A stretch of DNA of 64,000 bases from Octopus vulgaris. Lineage: Eukaryota. Of the stretch, positions 4,708 through 62,247 are shown piece by piece. A program made the translations under genes and the position numbers. Location: assembly GCA_951406725.2 (NCBI GenBank), contig OX597824.1, positions 26,846,001-26,910,000 on the forward strand. Direction: 5' to 3'. The notes under the pieces are model-generated. The model searched no databases. It worked only from the letters and a program-made list of their open reading frames with translations, and was not told the origin of the DNA. How positions within the stretch are numbered: position 1 is the first letter of the stretch; each line of letters starts with the position of its first letter.

Positions 4708-4784
<77 letters not shown>

Positions 4785-4818
4785 TATATATATACGTATA
4801 TATATATATATATATATA

Positions 4819-5250
4819 TATTGGTGAATTGAAGAAATGGAGCTGAACGAAGATTGAACAGAAATCGTTTTATTTCATTCTACACGTGGAGCCTAGTTCG
4901 ATTTGTTTTGCTCCGCCTCTGTTCTGTTTTTGTTTTTTCCAACGGATTTCCTATTTCTTCCTGAAGAGAAAGACACAATATGGTCTCATTATTCAATCGG
5001 ATTTTGGTAAATTGTGCCTTTCGAAACACGTGTAGAATGAAATAAAACGATTTCTGTTCAATCTTCGTTCAGCTCCATTTCTTCAATTCACCAATAATAT
5101 TTTAATTTCAATTATCCGCACCAACGCACGGTTGCAACACCATATGGTTGTACCTCCAACCGTACTGTCTTCTGCTGTGATTTTTGCTACCAAGGTATCG
5201 GTTAAACTTTTGATTAATCTGCTACAAGATTATTCATCTTTCTTTTTCAC

Positions 5251-5252
<2 letters not shown>
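4819..5252 (+). mobile_element. Non-autonomous PLE-derived/retrozyme-like element with a 70-bp perfect inverted repeat, inserted in (TA)n
   Basis: Arms 4819-4888 and 5027-5096 are exact reverse complements; hammerhead inside; (TA)n on both sides. Confidence 0.8.
4952..5044 (+). ncRNA. Minimal type-I hammerhead ribozyme, intact core
   Basis: CTGAAGA 4961-67; stem II GAAAGACACAAT/ATTGTGCCTTTC (11/12 bp); GAAAC-ACGT-GTA 5023-34; stem I TATTTC-TTC/GAA-t-GAAATA. Predicted cut after 5034. Confidence 0.88.
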
Positions 5253-5316
<64 letters not shown>

Positions 5317-6740: not shown

Positions 6741-7700
6741 AAAGCCAAGAAAGAGAGAAGAAATTTCAAAGGTCAGTTCTCCTATTCACTCAATATATTT
6801 CAAAGCATCGGAATGCTCCACACCATACATAGGTCCGCTCATATACATGTTACTGAGAAAGAAGGAACCGATTTTACTATGCAACAGCGACCGACTCAGT
6901 GGATTGTGATATGCTGATACGCGTCTGGGAGGAATTCTCTTATCGCACTGAAGTTGCCCGTGCTGCAGGTGGTGGTCACATTGAACACTTACAAGACAGG
7001 AAATAAACTTGTTTGTGAGTAAATTCTTGTACCTTAGCTGGAGTTTTCTATTGCTTTTACTTATTAAAATATTGCGTAATGAAATCGGTTCATTCTTTTT
7101 GAATAACCATGTATACATGATGTAATATAAAATATATAAATATATAAATAAATTTTAGAAAATTTTAGGAAAATTTTAGGGAAATAAAAATAAGAAATAA
7201 GTGGAAATTTTACCGGTGAGTGTGTTACATTATAAAGCACAAAAAGAAAATGACTCTCTCCAGACACAACAGAGCATGCTTCAACAAACGAACTCATATA
7301 AAGAATCTTGCAAACCAAATCCAAAAACCAAATATATAAATAAATAAATACATAAATGTACCCGCTAGTCTGTATGTCCGTAATAAAATAAATGAGGATA
7401 TTAAAATTCGCAGATGGTGAATTTATAGCGGTAATTTTATACCGACATTCTCATCTTTTTGGATTACAAATATACATTCACCATGTGCATATTTTAATAT
7501 CCTCATTGATTTTAATACGGACACATAACCTCGCGAGTACATTTATGTATTTATATATTTATATATTCATATATTTTTATATTACATCATGTATATATTA
7601 GTGCACCTATGTATACTGTGGAGTTTTCCCAATGCTTTGAAATGTATTGAGTGAATATGAACACTGACCTTTGGAATTTGTTCTCTCTTTCTTGGCTTTA
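6741..7700. mobile_element. Nested fold-back composite of PLE-like terminal repeats
   Basis: Outer IR 6741-6822 / about 7617-7700; inner IR about 7330-7423 / 7476-7570; contains a decayed hammerhead and the shared 3' terminal module at 7150-7327. Confidence 0.65.
6943..7018 (+). ncRNA. Degenerate hammerhead ribozyme
   Basis: tcgca-CTGAAGT-TGCC...GACAG-GAAAT-AAACTT-GTT-tgtga; stem I is 5 bp; A9 is changed to T. Confidence 0.5.
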
Positions 7701-9119: not shown

Positions 9120-9162
9120 ATACTTCTGTTTCGATACTCCAATGTACTAGCCACTAGGGACA

Positions 9163-9207
<45 letters not shown>

Positions 9208-9246
9208 CTATTCAATACTTCTGTTTCGATACTCCAATGTACTAGA

Positions 9247-9331
<85 letters not shown>

Positions 9332-30672: not shown

Positions 30673-31619
30673 AAACCCTATAAATCTTGCCTAAGCGACA
30701 TACAGCAATGCTATGAAACTTTCTGTGAGCTCACTGCAAGATTCGATTTTAGTATCCACCTCGATTCATTATCTATTTATTAAATTTTGATCTTGAAAAT
30801 GAAACAAACGTTTCTTAATTTTTGACCTCTTATCCCGGCTTTAAATTTATAGTCCGTATACTTTTCGGAAAATAAACAAACTTGTTATCTCCAAATTTAT
30901 GATATTCTTCCTCTTTTGGATTTGGTTTGCAAAATTCTAAATATAAACTCGTATGTTGAACTAGATTTTGCTACATTTCGGGAGGGTCATTATGCCAATA
31001 GTAAACACACGCTCTGGTTCTATTTCACTTTGAACGTACTTGGAGTAGAGAGGGCATACCATTGATGAGGTCGTGCGTGGCAATAAAAGGAATTTGGAAA
31101 ACCTAGCTGAATGATTGTCCGAATGTTTAATCAAATTCTCGATTAGTTAATTGGTTACTTGGTTAACCCATTGATAAGTAAATAATAAAGAAGTGAAGTA
31201 GAATCAGAGCGTGTGACGCGTTAATAATTGGCATAATGATCCTACAAAAAACTATGAACTCCATTTCAGTAGAAACTTTAATTCTATTTATACTTCACTG
31301 TAAATACTAATGAAGTTTAAACCCTTATGTTTTGATCCATATGTGCCGTACTTTACTTAAATTTTTTCTACCGTACAAGCTTTATGAGCGAAAATAGCTA
31401 GCTGTTTGATGGATCCTTCTAGTTCCTGGTTGGAAGAGTTAATCCCTCTCCACATTAACACTTGAGCTGGCCTTGTATGGGTGCTTTAATTGACACCATC
31501 TTGTAAAAGCATTCAAGCGTTCAAACATCTAAGCTTGGTGTCTCGTTTAAGTAGAACACCGTTGCGTAAACAATGCATTATAAATTCTTTCTTCAAAGAA
31601 GAAAAATAATTCATAACAG

Positions 31620-33926: not shown

Positions 33927-34263
33927 AGGTAAAGAATCCCTTCTGTCATGAATGAATATGAGATTGCACTTAGAAAGTTCCCCTCCGAGGCATAAGTCCG
34001 TGCAAAGTTGTTTGTGGAAGGCCGGCAGTCGCCCATACACACCAGCCTCCACACTCCACGCCACCGATGTTATCCAAGGTAAGAGCAAAGGCCGATACAG
34101 CTTGATACCAGTGACGTTACAACTCATTTCTACAGCTGATCGAACTGGAGCAACGTGAAATAAAGTGTCTTGCTCAAGAACACAGCACATAGCCCAGTCC
34201 GGGAATCGAACTCACTACCTCATGATTGGTGGACCTGATGGTCTAACCGCTGAGCCATGCGCA
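33927..34263 (-). mobile_element. SINE family D
   Basis: Reverse complement of 20843-21177. Confidence 0.88.
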
Positions 34264-34267
34264 TATA

Positions 34268-34823
34268 TTGGGTTGTCCGGAAAGTTCATAGCGATTTTTA
34301 AAGGAAAGAAAAAGGTCAATAAATACTTGCCACAATCAACCAAATATGAATCATGTTGCTGCACAATGCGTCTCCATCTTTCCTTTAACTTGAAAATACC
34401 CTCTTCAAAGAATTGATGTGGTTTCATGGCAAGGAATTCATCAGGGTATCTTTTTACGTCATCCAAGGAATTGAATTTTTTCCCATTAAGACTATTCTGC
34501 AGAGACCTGAATAAGGGAAAATCCGAAGAGCAATATCTGGTAAATATGGAGGGTGGTGTAACACATCCCAGCCGAGCTGCAGCAGTTTTTGTCTGGTTCC
34601 CAAAGCATCAAGTGCCGCAAACGAACTTTCCTATCTTCCATTTTAAAGGGTTACAGAATTAACACAGGTTATAGGAACATAAACCTTCTTCCACGAAAAG
34701 ATAGCTTAAACTGTGCTCTAAATGGAGGTGTAGTCAAATCCTATTTTATGGACTCAACCATGTTCTAAAATAAGTCGAAATGTAAGCTACTATAAATCGG
34801 CACGAACTTTCCGGACAACCCAA
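34268..34823 (-). mobile_element. Internally deleted mariner element
   Basis: TIRs ttgggttgtccggaaagttc / gaactttccggacaacccaa, TA TSD, transposase C-terminus DDVKRY.DEFLA.KP.QFFEEGIFKLKERWRRIV. Confidence 0.92.
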
Positions 34824-42040: not shown

Positions 42041-42151
<111 letters not shown>

Positions 42152-42169
42152 GTACGTTTATGTGTTTCG

Positions 42170-42435
42170 TTTTAAGGATTCTTGATGTGAAACCGTGTGT
42201 TGAAATAAATATTGTTATATTCCGGGATGGTATTTTACTTTTTTTTTTTCGCCAAATAAACACATACATTACATTTTCGTTCAGAGTTATTAATTACATT
42301 ATTTACAATATTTACATTTGACGGATATTTGTCATCGTCTTGTTTGTTGTTATTTACAACGTTTCGGCTGATATACCCTCCAGTCTTCATCAGGTGTCTT
42401 GAGGAAATTTCGAACATGGGTTCTCATTCTTAAGG
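42170..42435 (-). mobile_element. PLE-like 3' end: hammerhead (42350-42398) followed by the shared terminal module
   Basis: Minus strand CTGATGA-A-GACTG-gagggtatat-CAGCC-GAAAC-GTT-GTA, then 'ttcaacacacggtttcacatcaagaatcc'. Confidence 0.68.
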
Positions 42436-46466: not shown

Positions 46467-47000
46467 AGGGTGCAGAGAATATATTGTAGTCTAAATTACA
46501 CACAAAGTGAAAATAACGCTGAGATCTCATTTTAAGAGATATATTTACCAACATTAAATAAAAATGTCTTGAAATACTAAAGAGTAAATTTATTCAATAA
46601 ATTCGCCATTGGACGACTTCGGAATCTCATGCATCTCTTCTGGATATTCTCCTTGTTTAAGTTGGTGAATGCTGCCATAATGCTGGCCTTCGGTTCATCT
46701 TTGGTATTACAAGGGCTTGCGCCCCACACATATTAATCAAGGGGGTTGCAGTCTGGGGAATTAGGTAGCCAGATGTTAGGGGTGATATGGTCGCAGAAAT
46801 TGTCTGACAGCCATGACTGGGTTCTCCCGCTTGTGAGGCATGGTGCAGAGTCCTGTTGCCAGCTATAGGGTGTTCCAGCAGCCACCCTCTTGAGCCAGGG
46901 CAGTCCCACCTCCTCAAGGCACTTGATGTAGGCCTCCGTATTGAATCTGCGGCTGTATGAGTAGATGAGGTATAACGTCGCCATCACTAGTAGGACAAAC
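46467..47000 (-). mobile_element. maT (DD37D) Tc1/mariner relic
   Basis: QQDSAPCLTS...WLPNSPDCNPLD with 37 residues between D2 and D3; TA-CAGGGTG terminus. Confidence 0.88.
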
Positions 47001-47402
47001 ATTAAGAGCCGTTAGGCCAAGACGAATTGTAATGGGTAAAGCCCGGAAGAAATTCCTTAAGGAAATGGAGTAAATAGAAAGGTAAAGAGTAGAAGAGATA
47101 AAATGTCGGCTGGCGAAAGAAACGACGTTTAGCCCGGTGGCCATCCCCACCAGAAAAGACAGGGGTGAAAGAAATGGCCTGTAGTCACGTGTGAGCAAGA
47201 TACAGAGGGGGAAGAGGACAAGAGAGGATGAGGGAAGGAAACAAAGTGTGTGATGAGGAGAAGGGAGAAGGAACGAAAGATAGTAGGGAGTAGGAGAAAG
47301 ACAGACAGAAGACAGCAAAGAAGGAGGAGAAGAATCGGAAAATATATAGGATTGTAGAGGCATTGAGAGATAGAAAGGAAACATAGTGTAGAGTTGCAGA
47401 AA

Positions 47403-47774
47403 TCTTTATATATAAAAGAGAGGTTGTGTGCTGTCTGTCTCCTACGATTTAGATTCCTAACTACTCCCACATTTTGCGGTGCAGTTTAACCAAAACCGGG
47501 TATCTTATAGTCGTGATTCATATCGAGCCCTTCTGGGTATTAGCGCGCGTCTACGATGAGTCTACGATTAAAAAAAAAATTTACCATAATTTTTTTCCAT
47601 TTTAATACATTTTTTTCGCTATTATATAAAGGAAGTAACTCTCTAAAAATGTCTACGATGAGTCAACGATTTTTAAAAAAAATTACCATAATTTTTTTTC
47701 CATTTTTAATGCAGTTTTTTGCTTATATAGTTATTTCCCTTACAAACCCGAGCAACGCCGGGCGATACTGCTAG
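47403..47774 (+). mobile_element. Non-autonomous Helitron (same family as 14818)
   Basis: 5' TC, 3' hairpin plus CTAG, A|T target. Confidence 0.88.
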
Positions 47775-53557: not shown

Positions 53558-54720
53558 ATTGCGTCATCCCGTAAATAATGCATTTATTTTTATAAAACTT
53601 TTATTTTTCAGAATTAAGATAAAGAAATGTCTTTTTTCATCTAAAATATACTCTCCTTTATTTTTTACAGTGCTCTTCCATCTATCTGCTAGACTTGCAA
53701 GGTCCCTCTTCCAAAATCCACTTGTCAGTGACGAAAAATATTCATCCACTGCTGTTCTGATCTCGTTTACAGAAATCATATTTTTTCCGTCAAAATGATT
53801 TTGAAGATTGCAGAATAATGGATGGTCAGATGAGGAAGTGTCCGGCGAATATAGTGGGTGGGACATTGTTTTCCATTCAAACTGCTCCAGCCTTTGGAAT
53901 GTCATCCTCACTGTATGTGGTCGAGCATTATCCTGATGAAAGAACACCTTTGGTTGTTTTTTTTTTTTTCTAGCGGTGACTTAATCCGCTCAAGCTGCTT
54001 GCTGTAGATTTCATTTGTTATCGTGTTATTTGGATTTAAAAATTCAATGTGAACTAAACCTTTCATATCCCATCAAACAGATAACAACACCTTATGCAGG
54101 CGAAGACCTTCTTTCGCCTGGGGTACCGGTGTTTCTCCTTTCCGTACCCAATGTCTTCGGCGCTTGACATTTTTATAGAGAGCCCATTTCTCGTCACCAG
54201 TAACTATTCGGCCCCAAAAGGGTCCATTCGTGTGGCGTGACAGCAAAGAAGAGCACACATTCACTCTTCAATTGGACTCAGAAAGTTTGTGAGGAACACG
54301 TTGACTGAATTTGTTGACTTTTCTGATGGCTGAAGGACCAAATCCAAGCTTCTCTGCTTGTTCCTCAACAGTTACAATGGGGTTTAGTTCCACCAGAGTT
54401 TGCAGGACGTATTCGTCGAACCATACAGACCTTCCAGGACGAGGTTCGTCTTCTAGGATGCAGTTTTCGGCTCAGAATATCTGGAACCACCGTCGACACC
54501 GTCTTATGCTCATTGTCCGATCCCCATATACAGCATTAATATTCCTCACACTTTCTGTTGTGTTGTTGCCTTCATTGAACTCATAAAGCACTTCCATTAT
54601 AGCTTTGAAAACATAACTGTTAAAATCAAACTGCACTCTTCAAAATTTGCACTAAGAATAAGTTTAAGGTAGATTTACTACCTGCTTTTATAGCAAGTTG
54701 ATGCAGGTTGATTACCACGT
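53558..54720 (-). pseudogene. Mariner (DD34D-type) transposase pseudogene
   Basis: RIVTGDEKW, HQDNARPH and HPLYSPD motifs in separate frames; multiple frameshifts. Confidence 0.92.
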
Positions 54721-56284: not shown

Positions 56285-57075
56285 GTCTAAATTACGTACA
56301 AAATGAAAATAACGCTGACATCTCATTTTAAACGATATATTTACCAACATTAAATAAAAAATATCTTGAAATACTAAAGAGTAAATTTATTCAATAAAAT
56401 CGCCATTGGCTTAAACCACGGCCTCTAGACGACTTCGGAATCTTTTGCAACTCTTCTGGATAGTCTCCTTGTTGAAGTTGGTGAATGCTGCCATAGTCCT
56501 TGTCTTCGGGTCATCTTTGGTGTTACAAGGAGTTTGGTTGGTCTCTCGCTCGACTGCGCCCCACACATAATAATTAAGTGAGTTGCTGTTTGGGGACAGA
56601 TGTTAGGGGTGATATGGTTGCATAAATTGTCTGACATCCATATTTGGATCCTCCTGCTTGTGTGGCATTGTGCAGATTCCTGTTGTCCGAGATAAGGTCT
56701 TTCATTAGTCACCCTCTTCATCCAGAGCAGCACTACCTCCTCCAGGGACTTGATGTAGGCCTCTGTGTTGAGTGCGAGGCCATGTGGGAAGATGAATGGA
56801 TGCATAACGTCTCCGTCACTAGTGATCGCTCCAAACACGTAGGAAGTTGACTGGATGTTTGATTTTTTATCACTCCCGGTACATGCGCTGTCCTCAGATT
56901 GACATCTAAACACTCTGAAACGTTCATAGTGGACCTTCCGGCGCGAATGCCAAGCAGTACAGCATGTCGTTTCCAAATATCTGGCAGAGTGAATTACATC
57001 ATGTTACTGACCCTACTATACTGTGTAGTCGACAAATACAATGGGCATGCACGAAATTAAAAATATAAAAATGTG
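56285..57075 (-). mobile_element. Second maT (DD37D) relic
   Basis: Collinear with 46490-47000; VFGAITSDGDVMHPFIFPHGL.LNTEAYIK.LEEVV. Confidence 0.88.
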
Positions 57076-61342: not shown

Positions 61343-61489
61343 AACAATAATAGTTAATTAAATAAGCAAATAGAGTTAATATTTATTTAAAAAATAAGTA
61401 AAATAATATTTTTTCTTATACAAGAAACTCTATTAACTAAAGTTGAAACTTAAAACATTAGGAATATTTCCTACAACACATTTATTATG

Positions 61490-62247
61490 TTGAATATTGA
61501 TGTGAATTCGTGTGTTGAAGTAGATATTGTTGTATTTGGGGACGGTCATGTTGCCAGTTTAGCCAATAAAACACACGCACTATATATTTTAACTTCTATG
61601 TTGTTGAGTGAGGCCCCGAGTTCCTGCTCGGCGTAAAATCTTGTCCACACATAGAACAGACGCAATGCTTAAACAAATTACGGAAGTTACACATCTAACA
61701 GAAGATAAACCTAGCCTGATTAGAAAACTAGAATGGAACACTAGCGCACACACCCCAGCACACCACAACCTACGCCAGAATATGATCCTCATAAACTGAT
61801 AAGAATATGAATATAATACAATTCACAGATAAATAAATGGAATTAACTATATACATAAACAAATTAAATTAAATTAAATTAATACAAAAAAAATATAGAA
61901 AGAAAAGTAAAAGTAAATAGATATAAACAATTGAATAAAATAAATTAAATTAAATGAACGTGTATAAACAGAAGATACTGATAATGCAGGCACCCCCCCA
62001 CACACACACACTTACTAAACATAGATACATACAACAGGAATACAAAATGCCAGATCATTAGTAAGGAGGGACACACATAAAAGAAAGAAATCAAAGGACC
62101 ACTGATGAAGTCACAGAAGTGTGACGAAAGAACTCTCGCCGAAATACAATTAATATAAAATAAAGCTGAAGCAATTGAACGCCAAATATACAGTGCGTGT
62201 GATTTTATTGGCTAAACTGGCAACATAACCATCCCCAAATACAATAT
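61490..62247 (+). mobile_element. 5'-truncated PLE: inverted terminal copy + GIY-YIG C-terminus + 3' repeat with hammerhead (62102-62137)
   Basis: KILSTHRTDAMLKQITEV.HL...KPSLIRKLEW resembles the PLE endonuclease end; CTGATGA-A-GTCAC-agaagt-GTGAC-GAAA-GAACT-CTC; IR 61527-61589 / 62186-62247. Confidence 0.78.

Follow-up and report, generated by a model that had tools for sequence, protein, structure and literature searches.

The window (the whole 64-kb stretch of DNA analysed here) is eukaryotic, with octopus-like repeats, abundant microsatellites and a GC content of 29 to 44%. At 4819-5257 it contains an insert of about 435 bp, flanked on both sides by (TA)n tracts (Table 1). The insert is composed of two arms arranged head to head, the short left arm being the exact reverse complement of a segment inside the sense arm, from which it is separated by a spacer of 138 nt. 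An earlier, sequence-only reading of this DNA had described 70-bp arms without mismatches, and this was borne out; the length is best given as 68 to 70 bp, as the outermost two nucleotides (TA) are equally assignable to the target. Both arms carry the same base at all five of the family-polymorphic sites checked (5040, 5048, 5051, 5065 and 5092). The 3' end of the element lies at approximately 5252-5257, where it is blurred by (TA)n, and no target-site duplication was discernible at the (TA)n flanks of the insert. A second copy of this element family was not found in the 64-kb window.

Table 1 Features of the insert and of its target, in window coordinates
Feature	Position	Strand	Remarks
Left (TA)n target tract	4721-4820		Interrupted (4721-4780, 4797-4820)
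Inverted short arm	4819-4888	-	Reverse complement of 5027-5096, 70/70; element 3' end toward left (TA)n
Head-to-head junction	4888/4889		G4888 probably common to both arms, ~1 nt microhomology
Sense arm	4889-5257	+	5'-truncated, pLTR-like 3' end; family of very high copy number; no protein domain detected
Stem I, 5' strand	4952-4960	+	Pairs with 5035-5044, U5038 bulged
Catalytic core C3-U4-G5-A6-A7-G8-A9	4961-4967	+	Invariant at ≥1% in four runs
Stem II and loop II	4968-5022 (4968-4979/5011-5022)	+	11 pairs, one mismatch, G10.1-C11.1; variable loop of 31 nt
GAAA core	5023-5026	+	
Palindromic helix III, ACACGTGT	5026-5033	+	One pair, C5027-G5032, around ACGT
GUA triplet	U16.1-A17 at 5033-5034	+	Predicted cut between 5034 and 5035
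Short terminus	5087-5100	+	Outer end of the inverted arm; recurs in other copies into (TA)n; putative RT start site 1
Extension on one arm only	5097-5257	+	Tail-like, ~155-160 nt
Long terminus	5245-5257	+	Motif resembles short terminus (TTCAC..ATAATAT); putative RT start site 2
Right (TA)n target tract	5255-5310		

The sense arm begins with an open frame (4889-5035) that enters the ribozyme and ends at a TAG (5033-5035) spanning the predicted cut. This frame had no Pfam match, and the family indels at 4905 (+1) and 4933 (-1) could cancel out.

The insert is likely a fragment of a Penelope-like element (PLE). An inverted, 5'-truncated copy adjoins the 5' end, a hammerhead is located in the terminal repeat, and the target is (TA)n, to which other copies of the family are joined as well. 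No RT, endonuclease or PLE domain was found with Pfam in the 5'-truncated copy or in 69 of the 223 candidate frames, which gave one weak and unrelated match, so that membership is assigned from the structure of the insert. An inverted 5' copy and a tail on one end belong to the standard layout of PLEs (PMC8557442, in part). The (TA)n-targeting endonuclease PLEs of the Neptune, Hydra and Penelope/Poseidon types share with the insert the 5' truncation, the (TA)n target without discernible duplication, the inverted truncated 5' copy with an extension on one arm only, and a sense-strand hammerhead near the 3' end (PMC8557442 and PMC3846280, both in part). In contrast to these, the window copy contains no ORF and its one-sided extension measures about 155 nt, compared with the 30-40 bp of the usual PLE tail. 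Judged by its layout, which looks ordinary for such elements, the insert appears to behave like an endonuclease-bearing, (TA)n-targeting PLE; it is an ordinary, further member of an already known kind. Of five short motifs, four from the element and one from the hammerhead core at 62102 (see below), none was matched exactly in the Craig 2021 supplement, whose Hydra-1_Obim hammerhead differs from the one in the window.

Two other classes were considered and ruled out. A MITE or TIR DNA transposon does not fit, since the right arm is internal and ends about 155-160 nt short of the end of the element. Non-LTR retrozymes (PMC7229834 and bioRxiv 10.64898/2026.07.22.740005, both in part) are similar in being non-coding, AT-rich, high-copy units of about 360 nt with a type I hammerhead. 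The window, however, contains a single unit and not a head-to-tail tandem, its second part is inverted, and the 3' loose ends of family contigs (among the 24 listed of 128 loose ends) continue into (TA)n, which speaks against a retrozyme tandem.

The predicted hammerhead ribozyme at 4952-5044

The plus strand at 4952-5044 encodes a hammerhead of type I whose core is complete and which is predicted to fold as a dimer only. As claimed in the sequence-only reading, all catalytic core residues are present (C3 U4 G5 A6 N7 G8 A9 / G12 A13 A14 A15.1 / U16.1 H17), at 4961-4967, 5023-5026 and 5033-5034. Helices I, II and III are able to form around the core, with stem I open and with helix III forming in the dimer only. 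A second palindrome, TTTCGAAA (5019-5026), adjoins the CACGTG palindrome of helix III. The hammerhead was the sole full match in the window to a relaxed hammerhead descriptor; the background in shuffled sequence was 0.1 match per shuffle with the relaxed descriptor and none in 30 shuffles with the strict one. Rfam returned three matches for 4830-5250 at E ≤ 10, none of them to a hammerhead family, and for the whole window the best 150 of 360 matches were all microsatellite-driven miRNA, without a hammerhead.

As a monomer, the segment 4945-5050 was predicted to fold no better than its shuffles (z 0.38). Cofolding as a dimer gave a double hammerhead of -44.7 kcal/mol versus 2 x -15.9 kcal/mol, a gain equalled in 4 of 200 mononucleotide shuffles. 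The pair probability of helix III was 0.04 in the monomer and 0.999 between molecules, and the pair probabilities of stem II were about 0.95. The 27 variable places of the family (at least 1%, four runs) spare the core, stem II and proximal stem I. The hammerhead variants were located in loop II, in loop III (rare) and in distal stem I, where A5040C (16-37% of depth) disrupts a pair; compensatory changes across copies were not seen among variants of at least 1% in the four runs.

The minimal/variant type I hammerheads of PLEs show the same combination of a full core, G10.1-C11.1, a long helix II, a short helix I and a 1-bp, dimer-dependent helix III with a palindromic loop (PMC4209133, in part). 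In metazoan PLE hammerheads the role of the palindrome is dimer formation, and these ribozymes cleave weakly in vitro (PMC4209133, in part). Since the palindrome belongs to a known PLE design for dimerisation, it has an explanation independent of the inversion; on the reading preferred here, helix III is palindromic for the sake of dimer formation in self-cleavage, not of inversion.

Abundance, age and termini of the family

At least half of the sampled words of the element were present in 19 of the 24 listed sequencing runs (five organism codes, nine studies). Four of the 24 runs were examined (X1, X2, X3 and X13), all with short contigs, of which 5246, 1217, 1139 and 195 per run were mapped; the details given below come from the 24 of 128 loose ends and 32 of 7858 pieces that were listed. 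Summed contig depth, which does not equal copy number, was about 10^5 to 10^6 in the three large runs and indicates a very abundant repeat family. Viral contigs gave no match to two patterns. In metagenome contigs, 17 loci fitted the degenerate core pattern, and none of them resembled the element in a BLAST comparison.

Over 364 nt, a single substitution is private to the window copy, A5164, where at least 99.9% of the depth carries G in all four runs. With the divergence rate implied in PMC13282606 (0.09 = 25 My; in part) and an octopus host assumed, this corresponds to an age of about 0.8 My (0.02-4.3). The absence of mismatches at the 70 arm positions limits arm divergence only to at most 4.2%, or the age to at most 5.8 My at the same rate, and arm identity by itself was rejected as proof of youth because this bound is too loose. 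The recent insertion that had earlier been deduced from the arms nevertheless stands: the insertion is likely young, and the count of private substitutions is the better evidence.

Both outer ends of the insert recur in other copies among the 24 listed of 128 loose ends. In X3, four contigs stop at 5100 and then continue as TA repeats, one of them covering 5017-5100 and hence reaching past the palindrome, and another contig begins at 5196, preceded by TA repeats. In X13, a contig with a loose end after 5251 passes into (TA)n. The two termini have the motif TTCAC..ATAATAT in common and are about 157 nt apart, compared with the 30-40 nt of the usual PLE tail. The depth after 5096 relative to that of 5032-5096 was 1.07 in X1, 0.34 in X2, 0.64 in X3 and 0.55 in X13; the corresponding ratios for 4915-4979 were 0.83, 0.64, 0.92 and 1.03. 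These ratios weakly suggest that the short terminus is frequent and that synthesis does not generally stop at the palindrome, with X1 disagreeing on the former and X2 on the latter.

Further observations concern single runs. The depth of X2 drops about 20- to 100-fold across 5227-5252, which is not seen in X1 or X3 and could reflect library bias or a different terminus. One motif was common to three X2 loose ends at unrelated places; it was set aside as what we take to be a library linker. X3 has one further loose end before 4906.

Further elements in the window

An older head-to-head element is located in 61380-62244, with arms of 61 nt (61530-61589/62184-62244) that are 93% identical. Its hammerhead retains the core and stem II (62102-62129, +), for which 40 shuffles gave no such match; stem I has decayed. 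Its inversion arm begins 41-55 nt downstream of the hammerhead core, and it belongs to a family different from that of the 4819-5257 element. Of its two arms, the left one reaches further at the 3' end. A related 3' end is present at 42130-42430 (-), with a decayed hammerhead-like core from 42393, (TA)n at the 3' end and (TTA)n opposite, and two further diverged stretches, 30941-31030 (-) and 7189-7307 (+), match the 61.5-62.2 kb element in its 3' region (64-69%).

An inverted pair (7109-7153/7553-7598, 91%) lies in 7109-7598, within which a nested fold-back was noticed by eye at about 7337-7425/7470-7560. At 9120-9250 there is a short direct duplication of a unique stretch of about 40 nt, its copies split by (TAT)n. 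The frames at 34218-34607, 53567-53980, 46660-47405 and 56428-57003 resemble, by eye, decayed pieces of Tc1/mariner transposases; they had no Pfam match at E ≤ 0.01.

Origin of the inverted arm

The upstream sequence at the junction is represented by one loose end in X1 (before 4895, four contigs), possibly of one subfamily only, which agrees with the window at 4888-4892 and diverges further left. G4888 probably belongs to both arms, which places the inversion breakpoint at 5027 or 5028.

The insert is probably a doubly truncated head-to-head insertion, for which reverse transcription started from both cut strands of the target and the resulting pair of short cDNAs was ligated. An element-encoded GIY-YIG/RT protein, absent from the window copy, would nick both (TA)n strands. 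The top strand would serve as primer at an internal site near 5096-5100, and the bottom strand would do so near 5252-5257, with an AUAAUAU-like motif helping at both sites. On templates in which the hammerhead cut site was read through, both cDNAs would end prematurely, at 5027/5028 and 4888/4889, and their 3' ends would then be joined with about 1 nt of microhomology. The stop of the short arm may be due to chance or to pausing of the polymerase 5-6 nt ahead of the 11-pair stem II. The starting points of this scheme were directly observed, namely the arms, the junction, the hammerhead core and the (TA)n flanks, together with the recurrence of both outer ends as (TA)n-joined ends elsewhere. 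As the outer end of the inverted arm coincides with such a recurring terminus, a priming site fits better than a random stop.

A precedent is provided by PAc, the Poseidon element of Anolis carolinensis, whose protein, a predicted dimer, cuts both strands of the target and extends them from two start sites inside the RNA (PMC11167929, in part). Given this two-site extension and the resemblance of both outer ends of the insert to priming sites, priming on both strands is the simplest path. PAc is also similar in its AT-rich target, in having both start sites downstream of the hammerhead and in an RNA that is read through the uncleaved ribozyme; its start sites, however, are spaced by about 30-40 nt and fall within the start of the ORF (PMC11167929, in part), whereas about 155 nt separate the termini of the insert, in which an RT N-terminus was not recognised. 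It is from the present analysis that we infer priming on both strands as the source of PLE inversions, a statement of which was not found in the literature examined, where few subscription papers were included. In L1 twin priming, the second target strand reportedly primes a second cDNA, which gives an inverted 5' part and a join with microhomology. The two parts of such L1 insertions are said not to overlap on one RNA, whereas in the insert part of the sense arm is repeated in the inverted arm, which implies two templates or a multimer.

The sequence-only reading had attributed the inversion to the ribozyme: the cleaved RNA end, or annealing of the CACGTG palindrome, would drive the strand switch that creates the inverted 5' ends of PLEs. 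It is correct that the inverted copy terminates at CACGTG; it does not terminate at the cut, as the arm ends 7-8 nt beyond it. The sequence would also be compatible with synthesis that jumped over the nick to the upstream product. The arm, however, includes 5027-5034, which is part of the upstream cleavage product, and because synthesis continued 7-8 nt past the scissile bond, the cleaved 5' end, where a stop would be expected at 5035, was not the stop. Annealing through CACGTG would give a hairpin without spacer, whereas the junction at 4888/4889 lies 138 nt away with about 1 nt shared and the whole ribozyme is kept there, so that this variant is unsupported as well. Nor does a ribozyme-driven switch hold as a general rule for PLEs. 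It fails on the 61530-62244 element and on Penelope-13_HM, whose 966-nt inverted 5' copy has an intact hammerhead inside at position 102 (PMC8557442 supplement, in part). In Schistosoma, hammerhead pairs lie on opposite strands 100-700 bp apart (PMC4209133, in part), and Naiads have inverted 5' copies despite the lack of canonical hammerheads (PMC8557442, in part). The PLE inversions described in PMC8557442 (in part) are located at a large distance from the ribozyme or in clades that lack it. PAc inserts equally well in vitro with inactive hammerheads, uncut RNA being its main template, and the accessible part of the same study reports no RNA-seq reads terminating at the hammerhead cut (PMC11167929). 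The ribozyme thus probably did not cause the inversion, and a switch by cleavage or annealing is very unlikely. Palindromes of at least 6 nt span 15 of the 208 possible arm-end positions, which corresponds to a chance coincidence of about 7-8% under uniform stopping; the position of the arm end on the palindrome edge is suggestive, but the feature was chosen after the fact.

This low chance of landing on a palindrome is also what commends a variant of priming on both strands, in which the RT reproducibly stalls at the hammerhead, either at helix III of the dimer or at the base of stem II, and short arms end preferentially at about 5023-5035. RTs pause before hairpins, and the stop lies 5-6 nt ahead of a stem with a pair probability of about 0.95, at the end of an 8-bp intermolecular helix. 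In X2, moreover, the depth of 5032-5096 is 1.6-fold that of 4915-4979. Such a hotspot is nonetheless unlikely, as the case is a single event with a feature picked afterwards, the X3 contig with the short terminus continues to 5017, the depth in X3 and X13 shows little step at the palindrome, and the 61530-62244 element breaks well downstream of its core. We also give little credence to fold-back self-priming, by which one cDNA (5255 to 4889) would prime on itself at 5027, copy 70 nt in sense and then join the target. A single template would give identical arms, and both self-priming, for rotifer PLEs, and palindromes at inverted junctions have already been proposed in print (PMC3846280, in part). 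The palindromes in that work, however, are at the junction itself, whereas the arms in the window are 138 nt apart; only about 1 nt of complementarity exists at the fold-back point, and the copy would by chance have to stop where other copies also end. An inversion after insertion, by repair or replication fold-back, or an assembly chimera would be in line with perfect arms adjoining long (TA)n tracts and with the exact window junction occurring in none of the four runs (no joints listed). Against either, the outer end of the arm is a natural terminus of the family, the two flanks are distinct and the layout is standard for PLEs, which makes this origin extremely improbable.

The origin of the head-to-head inverted ends of PLEs and the role of their hammerheads have been stated as open questions (PMC8557442, in part). 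The single copy in the window speaks against a switch by cleavage as well as against one by annealing of the palindrome. It is doubtful, though conceivable, that the folded uncleaved hammerhead, through a dimeric helix III joining two RNAs or through stem II, acts as a roadblock that fixes one of two simultaneously primed cDNA ends. If so, the ribozyme would shape head-to-head insertions via its structure and not via cleavage, and the hammerhead could pair two templates for priming on both strands, with start sites about 155 nt apart. As the family is young and very abundant and has two recurring 3' termini, a tabulation of its junctions could compare priming on both strands, fold-back self-priming and stalling at the ribozyme.
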